A stretch of 23,442 nucleotides of DNA. Source: a virus (taxonomy: Duplodnaviria; Heunggongvirae; Uroviricota; Caudoviricetes). The stretch lies in the IMG/VR virus record IMGVR_UViG_2648501361_000004, one strand, 5' to 3'. Position numbers and translations under genes: made by a program. The notes beneath the pieces are model-generated. The model made no database searches. It worked only from the letters and a program-made list of their open reading frames with translations, and was not told the origin of the DNA. This document shows positions 17,691 through 22,280 of the stretch, in pieces; the first letter of the stretch is position 1; each line of letters starts with the position of its first letter.

Positions 17691-19849
17691 TGGCTAAAGC
17701 ATGGAAAGATGTTATCGCTTCTCCACAGTATCAGGCGTTAACTGAAGAACAGAAAGCACAGGCTCAAGCGCAATATTTTGATGAGGTTGTTGCCCCTAAG
17801 GCTGGTGACAAATGGGCTGAAGCAAGAGATCAGTTTTATGCAGCATACCCTCCGCCTCAGCAGCAGAAAGAAGAACCATCATTGATGCAACAAGCTGGTG
17901 ATTGGCTCACAGGTGGTCAAAGTGCAGGGCAAATTGCAGAACAGGCTGGTCGTGGTCTGGTAAACATACCATTTGACGTATTGCAGGGTGGCGCAAGTCT
18001 GATTAATGCAATCAGCCAGGGGCTTGGCGGCCCCAAGGTTTTGGATGATGTTTATCGCCCTGCCGAGCGACCGACAGACCCTTACGCGCAAGCCGGTGAA
18101 ACAATTGGTGGGTATCTCCTGCCAATTGGCACAGCGGCAAAAGCTGCTGGAGCGACAGCAAAGCTCGCTGGAGATATCGGTTCCGCCGGAAACATGATTG
18201 CAGGTTCTCTTGCTGATGCTGCAAATCAGGAGGGCGACTTTGCACAAAATGCTGCCATTAACGGTGGTATCAATATTGGTGCTCAAGGCGTTCTTTCAGG
18301 TGTCGGGCGCGTTATTGCGCCAAGGGTTTCACAGGCTCTTGGTGGTGCAGCACTGAATTCTGCTAATGATGTTTCTAGGATGGCAAAGTCAGGTGCTGGG
18401 CGTCAGTCAATTGCCAGTCAGGCCGCTAATGTGTCCGAAGATGTAGCAAAAGCGGCTGAGTCTGCTGGAATTGATATAAACGCATTAACACCAGGAATGC
18501 GATCTGGAAGTCGTGGAATTGCACAAGCCGAAGGCGCATTGGCATCAACACCAGGAATTGTTCAGGACGCCCATCAGGCAGCATTTAACGAAATATCATC
18601 AAAGTTAAGTCGAAACCTTGATGAATTTGGGGCCGCATCTGGAACGGCATCAGAAAAAAGTGCGGCTATAAAACAAAGGATTCTTCAAAATCTTGATCAG
18701 ATGAAGGATGCCGAGCGCGCGGCATGGGATGACGTGCGGTCAACAATGCCAAATCAAAAAGCAAGAATGCTAAATGGTAATGCCGTTATTCAGGCAGAGC
18801 GATCTGCCGGCATACCGCTTACTCCTGAAATGAAACAGTTTGTTCAGGCAAACAATCAAGGTGGAGTAACATTTGACGGCATGAAAGCATGGAGAGCGAA
18901 ATTTGCTGATGCGGAGCAAAAATATAAGCGTAGCGGAGAGGCAAATGCGGCAAGGAGAGCAGGGGAAATACGCCGGGCAATTACTGATGATATGCGCACA
19001 ATGGCGGAAAACGGCGGATTTCTTGATGACTGGCAAAAAGCTAATGATCTGTCTAAAGCGAGGTTATCAGCACAAGAGAGTGCAGAGTCTGTTTTCGGGC
19101 GTGATTTGGCAACAGATGCACTGATTACGAATGGAGTAAAATCCCTTCAATCATCGTCAGCTAAAGGTCTTAATGGTCCTGCTGGATTCCATTCTATGAT
19201 CCGCGCGCTGCCAGAATCAGAGCGTGTTCCTGCTATATCATCAATGTTGCAAGATGCTATCTCGCATGGTGTACGTGGTGGTAAAGCTGATGCAGCAGGA
19301 ATTAACCATATCGCAGAGATACTCACTCCACAAAATGTAAAAGCCATTAGCCGATATTCCTCAGAGCTTGGAAGAATTGCAGATGCATATGGCACTCTTG
19401 CAAGAGCAGCAGTGAAACCTCAGCAGTATATTGAAAGAACAGGGAGAACTGCCAATGTACTACGCGATCTGGATGCCGGTTTATCCAACGTCACATCAAC
19501 AGTGTTAAATGCAATTGCCAATTCAACATCAGGTGCCATTGTTGGTGGAGCAGGAGGGGGCATTGCAGGCGCTGCCGCAGGTGCTTTAGTTGGCGCCGGG
19601 CTAAAAGGTGCTGTATCTAAAATTGCCACCACACGTAGTGGTCGGTATGCGATAGAGAAAGCAGTTCAGGAAGCCACGAAAGCAGTAAGAGCTGGCGGAA
19701 GTAAAGAAGCATTAGCGGCGGCGGAACGCAGATTTATGGCAAATAAAGCCGCCGTAAAAGCAATACGCGATGCAGTTGGAAACGAAGAGTTCAATCGCTT
19801 AGCGAGGGCTGGCATTGTAGCGTCGCTAAGCGGAATGGCACAGGAGTAA
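17690..19849 (+). CDS. Ejection protein (P22 gp16-like)
   Basis: 719 aa, Ala/Gly-rich with hydrophobic glycine-zipper-like stretches ([26 protein letters not shown]). Last late structural gene before the accessory island. Confidence 0.8.
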
Positions 19850-20173
19850 TTAATCATCCATGGATGTATTGAGCTTATCTCGTGTTGATGTGGCGATTTG
19901 TCCTACATTCCTAAGCCAAGATTTCAAATCCTTGATATTGTCATTGATTTCATGAATATCTTCTTTTTTTAATCTGTTAATATTATTCTCAATAATTTCA
20001 ATGGATTGCTCAATATCAGATATAGTGAATGATAGTTTGTTCTTCTCATCTTTTATTGAGTTTTTAAGTGCTTCGTTCTCAGTCTTGAGGTCAGATATCT
20101 TTTGTTTTAAAGATGCCAGTTGGTACTGAACCACAATGAGTGCGATAGCTATCGCGATAACTGTTGTATACAC
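19850..20173 (-). CDS. Small single-pass membrane protein with coiled-coil tail (unknown function)
   Basis: 107 aa from a GTG start with strong RBS (AAGGGGG). N-terminal hydrophobic helix YTTVIAIAIALIVVQY followed by heptad-like K/E/L-rich sequence. Last gene of an AT-rich minus-strand cassette. Confidence 0.6.
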   Translation of the reverse strand: MYTTVIAIAIALIVVQYQLASLKQKISDLKTENEALKNSIKDEKNKLSFTISDIEQSIEIIENNINRLKKEDIHEINDNIKDLKSWLRNVGQIATSTRDKLNTSMDD

Positions 20174-20195: not shown

Positions 20196-20615
20196 TTATT
20201 TGTATGAAATCAACGAGTTAAGCTCCCTCTCATTTAGAGATTGGAATCTTTTTTCAGTTATATCAATGATGGCTGGCAATAGTTTTTTTACCTTCTCATG
20301 ACCATCAGGTTTAATGATAGCAATGATCTGGATATGAATTGGATATGTGTTGTGTACCGCAAATATCAAAAAGTTATCGCTAACTCTACGATGTATTGGC
20401 GTTGTTCTTAACCAAGGATCATCTACTCCAGGGATCCTGATGTGCGACTTGTAAATTCCCGATAAGACGGCGTGATGGTTTCTCTCAAACCCACCAATCT
20501 TACCAAGATAAGCTGAAACGGTGCCTCTGTTTTTGTAGTTTGCAAGAGCCTTCGCAAAGTATTGTTCTAATGGTCCAGCCGCTGCATCTACAACAATGCT
20601 TATGCGGTTTTCCAT
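20196..20615 (-). CDS. YafO-toxin-like protein (candidate type II toxin / mRNA interferase); family assignment tentative
   Basis: 139 aa; the C-terminal core VSDNFLIFAVHNTYPIHIQIIAIIKPDGHEK resembles, as recalled, the conserved YafO-family core (SD..LVY...LLIAIL.P..H). ATG start lies 16 nt upstream of the preceding gene's stop (coupling). Confidence 0.55.
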   Translation of the reverse strand: MENRISIVVDAAAGPLEQYFAKALANYKNRGTVSAYLGKIGGFERNHHAVLSGIYKSHIRIPGVDDPWLRTTPIHRRVSDNFLIFAVHNTYPIHIQIIAIIKPDGHEKVKKLLPAIIDITEKRFQSLNERELNSLISYK

Positions 20616-21181
20616 TTTGGTGCTTCCATGCCAAATCTTTTATGTGAATCTTCAACTGATTTCTTGAAGGAAGCCAACTCTTCTTCAGTGAACTCTTCAG
20701 GTTCAGCATATGATAGTGGTATGTGCTGCATTGCTAGCGTCACAAGCCCCATTGTTAGCCTTTTGTATTCTATAAAAGTATTGATTGAGTGGTTTTTCAT
20801 TGTTGTAAGAGTTGACATATGGGGCTTCCACGCATCGCTGTTCTCAGCGATGAAGAAGGTATACAACAGTTTCGCGATACCATAATCAAGCTTAGATATC
20901 TGATCGTTCAACATATCTACATCGTCATGTTGAATATTAAGTGAGGAAATATCTTCTTCTGTACCATTACTTAATATGTCAATGAATGTAATGTACTTTT
21001 TGCAAACTTCCTCTACAGGTGACATAACGCAGTAGATCTTGCTAAGAGCTTCAGAAGCCTGTTTTTTAGACAAAGAGCCGCTATGACTGCGATCAAAGTC
21101 TGAAATTGAACGCTCGATAGATGTTGATATGTCAGAAAAAACGTTTTCAATTTTTCCTGGCTCTTGATTCAGGATGGCCAT
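20600..21181 (-). CDS. Hypothetical protein, first gene of the accessory cassette (candidate partner/antitoxin of the YafO-like gene)
   Basis: ORF open 20600..21199 (GTG). ATG at 21181 with upstream AGG is preferred (~193 aa). Predicted helical, acidic protein with no recognised domain. AT-rich codon usage unlike the structural genes. Confidence 0.6.
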   Translation of the reverse strand: MAILNQEPGKIENVFSDISTSIERSISDFDRSHSGSLSKKQASEALSKIYCVMSPVEEVCKKYITFIDILSNGTEEDISSLNIQHDDVDMLNDQISKLDYGIAKLLYTFFIAENSDAWKPHMSTLTTMKNHSINTFIEYKRLTMGLVTLAMQHIPLSYAEPEEFTEEELASFKKSVEDSHKRFGMEAPKWKTA

Positions 21182-21241
21182 AACGCCTATCTCAATCACA
21201 ATGTATACCTTGTTATTTTATATCAACGAACAAACATTGAC

Positions 21242-21490
21242 CTATCTGGTCTCGTACATTTTTTTCAGGGTTTCAAACACCATCTTCTTAACAATTTCTG
21301 CTTGCTGATCAGCCATACGTTCTGCTTCGTCACGGTAACCTGCAATCGGTGATGGTTTTGATAGCGCATCCTGAACGATTTGTAATAACTCAGAGTTCAT
21401 TGACCTTCCGTTAGCCTCGGCTCTTAATTTCAATTTTTCTCTTACTTCCAAAGGCATACGGAAGTTAAAGTGCGGATCATCTCTAGCCAT
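21242..21490 (-). CDS. mnt: Mnt repressor (ribbon-helix-helix)
   Basis: 82 aa, MARDDPHFNFRMPLEVREKLKLRAEANGRSMNSELLQIVQDALSKPSP..., near-identical to P22 Mnt as recalled. Confidence 0.9.
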   Translation of the reverse strand: MARDDPHFNFRMPLEVREKLKLRAEANGRSMNSELLQIVQDALSKPSPIAGYRDEAERMADQQAEIVKKMVFETLKKMYETR

Positions 21491-21513: not shown

Positions 21514-21777
21514 CTAACTTTCGTCTTTATTGTTGCCATACATGCATTTCAACTTCTCAACATCATGTTCAAGATCTATCAATCGTGATGCTATAGTTGC
21601 AAGGTCTAGTGCTTGAATGTGTTTATTTTTTTCGGTCCATGCTTCAAGTGCAGCGACCATCTCAGCATTTAATGAACGAGAATTAGCCTCAGCCAGTTCA
21701 ATAAGACGTTCCTTTATCTCTACAGGAAGCCTCAGATTCACTTGAGGGTTTTTGTACTTACGATCAGACATCGGCAC
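21514..21777 (-). CDS. Second Mnt/Arc-like ribbon-helix-helix repressor with C-terminal extension
   Basis: 87 aa; PQVNLRLPVEIKERLIELAEANSRSLNAEMV is the Arc/Mnt RHH signature. Reads divergently from arc, directly upstream of mnt. Confidence 0.8.
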   Translation of the reverse strand: MPMSDRKYKNPQVNLRLPVEIKERLIELAEANSRSLNAEMVAALEAWTEKNKHIQALDLATIASRLIDLEHDVEKLKCMYGNNKDES

Positions 21778-21799
21778 ACCCTGAATAATTTTTTACCAC

Positions 21800-21857
21800 A
21801 GGATATGTAGGTGTCTATTGACTATCAATGCGTACCTAAATACTATGTATGCGTACC
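21800..21857. promoter_or_regulatory. Divergent back-to-back promoters with candidate operators (immI control region)
   Basis: Plus strand: -35 TTGACT 21818-21823, 17-nt spacer, -10 TACTAT 21841-21846 (Pant-like). Minus strand: -35 TTGATA (complement of 21823-21828), 17-nt spacer, -10 TATCCT (complement of 21800-21805). Direct repeat ATGCGTACC at 21828-21836 and 21849-21857 (21-bp spacing) and a palindrome GTATG-N7-CATAC overlap the promoter. Confidence 0.45.
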
Positions 21858-21876: not shown

Positions 21877-22017
21877 ATGAAGGTAAAAACACTGCGTATG
21901 CCAGAGAAGTTAGAAAAAATCCTTGAAGAGAAAGCAAAGGAAGAGTGTCGATCGTTTAGCGCAGAAGTAATTAAACGGGTGCTGGACAGCTTGAAGAGAG
22001 AGGGGGTGATGGTATGA
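21877..22017 (+). CDS. arc: Arc repressor (ribbon-helix-helix)
   Basis: 46 aa from ATG 21877 with GGAGGA RBS: MKVKTLRMPEKLEKILEEKAKEECRSFSAEVIKRVLDSLKREGVMV, parallel to P22 Arc (RSVNSEIYQRVMESFKKEG). The track ORF 21811..22017 is an upstream extension. Confidence 0.8.
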   Translation: MKVKTLRMPEKLEKILEEKAKEECRSFSAEVIKRVLDSLKREGVMV

Positions 22018-22217
22018 GTAAAGAATGTTGTTTCTGCGGCATTAGCGAATCAGACGCTGATCAAACATACATTTACTCTAAAGAAACAGGTCGGATGCTG
22101 TGTAGTGACTGCGTGTTGGACATCATAAGATACAAGCATCTTGGATGTTCTGCCAGCATTAGCAATATAGGTGAAGTATACGAAGGGAAAGATATAACTG
22201 ATAGAGCAGAAAGTTGA
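22014..22217 (+). CDS. Small Cys-rich (zinc-ribbon-like) protein between arc and ant
   Basis: 67 aa with CCFCG...CSDC...C. ATG overlaps the arc stop (ATGA), suggesting translational coupling. No homologue recognised. Confidence 0.55.
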   Translation: MSKECCFCGISESDADQTYIYSKETGRMLCSDCVLDIIRYKHLGCSASISNIGEVYEGKDITDRAES

Positions 22218-22280
22218 AGCCCCAACTGCGGGAACAGTCAGGGCTTCGGTATCGTAAAACCACGCATAGGAATTAACGAC

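Follow-up and report, generated by a model that had tools for sequence, protein, structure and literature searches.

The YafN-YafO module of Escherichia coli K-12, encoded in the order dinB-yafN-yafO-yafP, is a type II toxin-antitoxin (TA) system in which YafO acts as a ribosome-associated mRNA interferase. YafO is among the least-studied RelE-type toxins. The survey of Gerdes (2025) describes a family of about 1,000 members with an antitoxin-toxin gene order and a disputed dependence on the ribosome (PMC11980606). K-12 YafO is toxic on its own according to Zhang et al. 2009, as cited in that survey (PMC11980606). Leplae et al. 2011 associated toxins of the YafO superfamily with Phd antitoxins and also with unclassified "guilt-by-association" partners, and reported none of these toxins on phages or plasmids (PMC3141249). 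Mix-and-match of TA partners is an established principle. Autonomous, selfish chromosomal TA modules have been described in Photorhabdus (PMC13617665), and a 2026 study of Photorhabdus validated 50 TA pairs, with YafO among the toxin classes. Our literature search found no link of YafO to prophage hotspots or NetFlax, and no YafO structure.

The DNA analyzed here, a window of 23,442 nucleotides, matches Enterobacteria phage CUS-3 (CP000711), a prophage of UTI89/RS218 whose host is E. coli K1, at 100% identity, and equally the P22-like prophage of E. coli UTI89, NU14, IHE3034, APEC O18, and other strains. The plus-strand ejection-protein genes end at position 19849 and precede a string of five genes on the minus strand. 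Read in the direction of transcription, the string comprises an Arc-like gene of 87 aa (21514–21777; Pfam Arc, E = 3.4e-10), mnt (21242–21490; Pfam Arc as the N-terminal and Repressor_Mnt as the C-terminal domain), a partner gene encoding a putative antitoxin (20600–21199), a YafO-family toxin gene (20196–20615), and, as the last gene, hkcB (19850–20173; 107 aa). The toxin/partner pair sits in the immI-proximal part of CUS-3, between mnt and hkcB/gene 16, and arc, the sar RNA, ant, and the endosialidase tailspike gene lie beyond the minus-strand string. CUS-3 has two tandem mnt-type genes, and the 87-aa copy upstream of canonical mnt, of the ribbon-helix-helix type, lacks the Mnt C-terminal domain. 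Between arc and ant, a plus-strand ORF encodes a Cys-rich protein of 67 aa without a family match (22014–22217; MSKECCFCG...CSDC). The sar antisense RNA (22212–22279, minus strand; Rfam, 84.6 bits) follows directly and overlaps the 3' end of this ORF and the ant leader. An ORF of about this size is absent between arc and ant in P22.

The toxin gene starts with ATG and encodes a protein of 139 aa (WP_000431541.1) that contains the segments VSDNFLIFAV and IIAIIKPDGHEK. The original prediction had placed the ORF here and compared its product with YafO, and both points were confirmed. The protein matched Pfam family PF13957 (YafO_toxin) over profile positions 2–98 of 101 with 43.6 bits (E = 3.2e-11), the gathering cut-off being 25 bits. 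A profile of close relatives of the CUS-3 toxin matched K-12 YafO in hhalign with a probability of 86% (E = 5e-6, 20% identity), and the two segments named above aligned with K-12 YafO RTNDEAHLVYCQG...LLIAILKPEPHKL. The score against NCBIfam NF007377, the K-12 YafO equivalog, was 13.9 bits, below the 153-bit cut-off. Judged by its sequence, the protein is a member of the YafO family and not an orthologue of K-12 YafO. Its RefSeq/PGAP name is already "type II toxin-antitoxin system YafO family toxin", while the original CUS-3 record lists it as hypothetical.

An alignment of 36 members splits the YafO family in two: the K-12 type of 132–134 aa and a second type of 136–143 aa, to which the CUS-3 protein belongs, with the motifs GGFERN, HI, PW, RxSDNxLVYAxH, QIIAIIxPDAH, and LNExEL. 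Residues H58, L83, and H106 are invariant in both subfamilies, and G38, R77, S79, P103, and E121 are nearly so. With K-12 YafO itself aligned, the invariant residues are H58, R77, D80, L83, P103, H106, and E121. Numbering refers to the full-length protein and is therefore one higher than in the alignment and model reference, from which Met1 is absent. The structural model (pLDDT 93.5) has a RelE/HigB-type fold, that is, the RelE/BECR type, and its best PDB matches are toxins of the RelE superfamily. The protein is basic (pI 9.65, net charge +6). A search of PADLOC-DB v2 with the toxin gave no match.

The gene directly upstream of the toxin gene, annotated as "hypothetical protein" (WP_000569748.1), begins at a GTG at 21199 (199 aa) or at an ATG at 21181 (193 aa), the latter being the length given in the original prediction. 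Met1 and Met7, corresponding to the two candidate starts, are both kept across most of the partner family. As read from the sequence, the 3' end of the partner gene overlaps the start of the toxin gene by 16 nt (20600–20615, minus strand). The ATG of the toxin gene is embedded in the AAA-TGG codons (Lys-Trp196) of the partner gene, with a GGAAG sequence 7 nt upstream.

The original prediction also held that the usual YafN/Phd-type antitoxin is absent and that the upstream gene is unrelated to it, which agrees with all searches performed. The partner had no match in Pfam or NCBIfam and no similarity to YafN by BLASTP, and no RHH, HTH, AbrB, or Phd domain was detected with the two profile collections. 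It belongs to PHROG 18235, which has no assigned function. The only match in PADLOC-DB v2 was to PtuB, over 60 residues of coiled helix and not significant (E = 0.0043). The AlphaFold2 model is all-helical (mean pLDDT 79.7) and consists of a four-helix bundle (residues ~14–157), a low-confidence acidic linker (158–171), a C-terminal helix (172–188), and the tail SHKRFGMEAPKW, which is conserved and unstructured. Fold searches in PDB and BFVD returned generic helical bundles only. The protein is acidic along its entire length (pI 5.0, net charge -11). Given this overall acidity and the lack of any recognizable domain for DNA binding or of a known antitoxin type, classical operator autoregulation by the partner is doubtful. 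The acidity would argue against a DNA-binding antitoxin of the classical kind, while a novel mode of DNA binding is conceivable.

The partner family is rare. An exhaustive profile HMM search of 1.84 billion representatives recovered 18 clusters, none of them annotated, and a word-indexed search gave 16 matches. A scan of viral contigs with the partner found only CUS-3-like contigs and one Salmonella-like contig. W124, within an AWxPH motif, is the sole partner residue invariant among 13 divergent pairs. The C-terminal motif SHxxxGxxxPxW is the other well-kept element and is degenerate in three distant partners. Complementarity of charge between partner and toxin is confined to the CUS-3 clade.

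In every complete Enterobacterales locus examined, a gene of the partner family, or an unannotated ORF assigned by its like size and position, lies directly upstream of the gene for the 136–143-aa YafO protein, and the pairing holds down to 12%–25% partner identity. Such pairs occur in E. coli, Salmonella (four contexts), Pectobacterium, Xenorhabdus (two sites), Photorhabdus, Pantoea, and Enterobacter, as well as in a Shigella phage-like replicon, a bat-gut siphovirus, and a metagenome. The close family, with 62%–68% partner identity, comprises Pectobacterium and a P22-like prophage of Salmonella; the Xenorhabdus partner shares 42% identity and is found at two different housekeeping sites. The exhaustive search also recovered distant partners from Photorhabdus, a soil metagenome contig, and a lambdoid prophage, and in each case a YafO_toxin gene comes next. 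Conversely, the gene upstream of distant toxin relatives (35%–42% identity) encodes 190–215 aa without a Pfam match and is recognized by a broadened partner profile with E-values of 5e-12 to 2e-28. The sole relative in the phage database and two "plasmid" relatives, both of which are phage-derived DNA, are arranged alike, their upstream ORFs of 190–194 aa being matched by size and position. A genome scan with a narrower toxin alignment found 10 loci.

When the collected loci were all scanned locally with HMMs, the partner lay immediately upstream in every complete case but one. The exception is Pasteurellaceae bacterium LFhippo2 (L025:2360-3318), in which the gene for a 142-aa toxin (34% identity) forms an ATGA overlap with an upstream ORF of 176 aa. 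The partner profile did not recognize this ORF; it represents a third type of partner or else one that has diverged to an extreme degree. In one Photorhabdus assembly (L013:1243-1479), the toxin is called as a truncated protein of 78 aa beside an intact partner, in keeping with the erosion of chromosomal TA modules, starting from the toxin, that has been described in that genus. In Photorhabdus (L012:5632-5940 and L013:2101-2409), the cassette adjoins a gene for a PirA-like insecticidal toxin and is near tailocin-like phage-tail-sheath genes.

The overlap of 16 nt recurs in Pectobacterium, Salmonella, and Xenorhabdus, and the junctions of the 13 divergent pairs range from -16 to +4 nt. Since the Trp is kept where the geometry of the junction differs, conservation of Trp196 is at the protein level. 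Partner and toxin identities are correlated across these pairs (r = 0.95, a value inflated by shared phylogeny), and the toxin is the better conserved of the two in 97% of pairwise comparisons. Within genera, where dS was measurable, dN/dS was 0.09–0.10 for the toxin and 0.14–0.19 for the partner. Both genes are under purifying selection, and both are conserved in five genera with saturated synonymous sites. This conservation and the low dN/dS values indicate that neither ORF is due to chance. The pair is thus bicistronic, co-oriented, tightly coupled, and conserved as a unit across unrelated contexts, with an upstream gene that evolves faster than the toxin gene and diverges together with it, as is characteristic of type II TA systems. 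The ~193-aa gene in which the original prediction saw a possible new type of neutralizing partner proved to be obligate to this YafO subfamily, co-diverging with it and translationally coupled to it, and is a putative antitoxin gene.

The residues in common with the toxic K-12 YafO are kept, the two genes form a mobile unit of 1–1.5 kb that leaves no space for a further gene, and the toxin is always preceded by a faster-evolving, coupled protein; hence a type II-like TA pair is the simplest description. We consider it probable that the two overlapping genes of CUS-3 make up a type II-like TA cassette with a novel antitoxin, likely serving exclusion or abortive infection and/or stabilization of the prophage. 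HK620, epsilon34, and SEN22 have kept hkcB but not the YafO pair, Salmonella L008 and all chromosomal islands carry the pair but no hkcB, and an Rfam search found no RNA in the cassette. Therefore, no third component is required, and hkcB was rejected as the third member of a tripartite TAC or other three-gene system. The hkcB gene has a strong Shine-Dalgarno sequence (AAGGGGG), begins 22 nt past the toxin stop codon, and abuts the gene 16 stop with its end, in what is the sieA region of P22. In its product, a hydrophobic segment at the N-terminus precedes a long coiled coil, and PHROG matches to Rz-like spanins were weak.

The cassette was found in five kinds of position. CUS-3 and a Salmonella relative carry it in the interval from gene 16 to mnt, where it is read in the mnt direction; in P22, this slot is held by sieA and orf59a. 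Two lambdoid elements have it right after the gene for the cI-type repressor, opposite to cro/cII, which is the position of rexAB in lambda. In P2-like prophages of Salmonella, it lies between gpA and the portal gene (gpQ). Rousset et al. 2022 identified this gpA-gpQ interval as a defence hotspot, in which P2 carries old and tin (PMC9122126). By position, the cassette thereby qualifies as cargo of prophage defence hotspots, these being variable, lysogen-expressed slots in which exclusion genes are known. It was also found as a moron among tail and baseplate genes and, outside phages, as chromosomal islands. Among 5,426 complete E. coli genomes, 44 carry the pair, in all cases intact, single-copy, and chromosomal. 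In 50,697 phage records the partner was found in CUS-3 only. A role in defence, taken by itself and on these positional and circumstantial grounds, has a little under an even chance.

The gap between mnt and the GTG of the partner gene is 42 nt in CUS-3, and the spacing is alike in loci L008 and L007 (43–45 nt). No sigma-70-like promoter was detected in these 42 nt by a consensus scan, and an internal promoter between mnt and the partner gene was rejected, inspection by hand having revealed only poorly spaced hexamers. Promoter-like sites known as consensus matches only are located at 21788–21828 on the minus strand and face the gene string, with a Pant-like site of the same standing opposite to them (21818–21846, plus strand). 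Pant and Pmnt overlap on the immI map of P22, and the CUS-3 promoter-like sites occupy the position of Pmnt. In the lysogen, the pair is probably transcribed from mnt, which is co-oriented and immediately upstream, and expression would likely be driven from Pmnt. Lysogenic expression is expected since the cassette is read in the mnt direction and sits in the sieA slot of P22.

The same toxin and antitoxin could also be purely selfish, stabilizing the prophage or island through post-segregational killing without any anti-phage benefit, and we regard this addictive role as possible although clearly less probable than the broader assignment given above. It would account for the bare two-gene inserts found outside phages. 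In Pectobacterium, the insert lies between an ABC-transporter operon and gcvP, and both here and in Xenorhabdus the inserts of ~1.5 kb contain only the two genes and lie between housekeeping genes, a pattern like that of the selfish TA modules of Photorhabdus (PMC13617665). The lack of a PADLOC match points the same way. However, no member of the partner family occurred in 72,556 plasmids, replicons on which addiction modules thrive, and phages of unrelated types harbor the cassette in three classical exclusion slots that are expressed in the lysogen. Selfish and defence roles are not mutually exclusive.

Two variant partners, P0016 and P0030, keep the body of the protein (residues ~1–155), and their tail is replaced by PEWVKSGxDFVKW. 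Partners of this type precede a phrog_5954 protein of 127–130 aa (L007:1455-2457 and L014:1728-2716), and the variant pair of L007 also follows mnt in a phage. The phrog_5954 protein had no match in Pfam, NCBIfam, or PDB. Its HHYHIG...VVHY...APHPP elements resemble those of YafO by eye, but a demonstrable homology to YafO was rejected after hhalign against both YafO profiles gave probabilities of 0.1%–0.2%. It may represent a second type of toxin on the same partner scaffold.

This reuse of the partner body upstream of an unrelated protein suggests a reusable module and raises the question of whether the partner is a sensor or co-effector and the YafO-like protein is inert alone, the two acting jointly on a trigger like AriA and AriB of PARIS. 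The size of the partner is in line with such a function, since a folded bundle of ~200 aa is far larger than needed to mask a toxin of 139 aa, and so is the lack of a DNA-binding domain of the antitoxin type. [quoted passage not shown] 2009, as cited in PMC11980606). We therefore find joint action of this kind rather unlikely. A broader proposal, which we offer tentatively, is that the helical protein founds an antitoxin/sensor family, in which the bundle body would sense phage or control its own stability, exchangeable tails would restrain at least two unrelated toxins, and temperate phages of at least three architectures (P22-like, lambdoid, and P2-like) would deploy the cassette from lysogen-expressed exclusion slots as an abortive-infection system.

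That the true antitoxin is another element, be it a small ORF missing from the annotation or an RNA of the antisense or repeat kind (type I/III), with the 199-aa gene as an unrelated passenger, was considered only in view of the partner's lack of a known antitoxin domain. It is very improbable: a passenger would not co-diverge or keep translational coupling, the partner is retained beside the toxin in every context even at 12%–25% identity, the chromosomal inserts leave ~240–380 nt of non-coding sequence upstream without a further called gene, and Rfam was empty in the cassette. Equally improbable is a lytic-cycle weapon of CUS-3 that shuts off host mRNA under the timing control of the partner, because, although phages encode RNases for host takeover and the toxin gene lies at the end of the virion/ejection-protein block, its direction of transcription is against that of the late operon and agrees with that of the lysogeny-maintenance gene mnt, and the same cassette is found outside any phage and directly after cI repressors.

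For the TA cassette, which we prefer, the following mechanism can be proposed. By analogy with K-12 YafO, the 139-aa product would be an endoribonuclease of the RelE/HigB fold that cleaves mRNA on or near the ribosome and arrests translation. The acidic helical protein of ~199 aa encoded upstream would be its cognate neutralizer, made first and stoichiometrically coupled to the toxin via the 16-nt overlap. The conserved C-terminal helix and the Trp-containing tail of the partner would most likely bind the basic toxin. The tail is proposed as the toxin-binding element since it is joined to the bundle by a flexible linker, is conserved in YafO-linked partners, and is replaced in P0016 and P0030; conservation of the C-terminal SHxxxGxxxPxW motif is the basis for choosing this segment. 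The four-helix-bundle body may have a further role, such as oligomerization, control of stability, or sensing. The biological role of the cassette would most likely be superinfection exclusion or abortive infection directed against other phages, and/or stabilization of the prophage.

The identity of the toxin is already present in public annotation and is not new. What is new is the definition of a distinct YafO subfamily of 136–143 aa, its obligate pairing with a rare, unannotated family of helical partners, and the recurrence of the pair in classical prophage exclusion slots. Nothing was found in the literature on the subfamily, the partner, or their accessions; the tables of the 2026 Photorhabdus study may include a tested relative. 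Presence of a YafO-family toxin on a phage corrects the 2011 view of the superfamily as not phage-borne (PMC3141249). A second YafO subfamily, never found with YafN, provides an easily cloned 1-kb system for studying how a putative non-canonical antitoxin would neutralize a RelE-fold RNase. The cassette is also a candidate prophage-encoded anti-phage module in clinically important E. coli of the K1/ST95 type (UTI89, RS218, IHE3034).

Among known systems, P22 sieA, lambda rexAB, and P2 old/tin have the same position and orientation as the cassette relative to gene 16/mnt, cI, and gpA/gpQ, respectively. This likeness is positional only, since no relationship in sequence or fold connects the cassette with these genes. 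Modular antitoxins, e.g., Panacea/PanA, serve several toxin families. The cassette resembles this concept, and TA-type abortive infection, in that the partner body is reused with a different tail, but the partner has no similarity to DUF4065/PanA or another known antitoxin domain, and the variant loci, like the toxin types, number only two. The RelE/ParE (BECR-fold) toxins HigB2, HigB1, YafQ, and RelE with their antitoxins are among the systems closest to the CUS-3 pair. Compared with YafNO of K-12, the CUS-3 toxin shares ~20% identity with YafO and forms a separate subfamily with its own motifs GGFERN and LNExEL, while the helical partner of ~200 aa is unrelated to YafN, a Phd/YefM-type protein of 97 aa. 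Likewise, the pair resides in immunity/exclusion slots of prophages, whereas K-12 yafNO belongs to the SOS dinB operon. Having neither a Phd/YefM-type antitoxin nor the dinB context, the CUS-3 pair is not a YafNO module. Common to both are the PF13957 domain, the core His/Arg/Asp/His/Glu residues, the antitoxin-then-toxin gene order, and tight coupling of the two genes.
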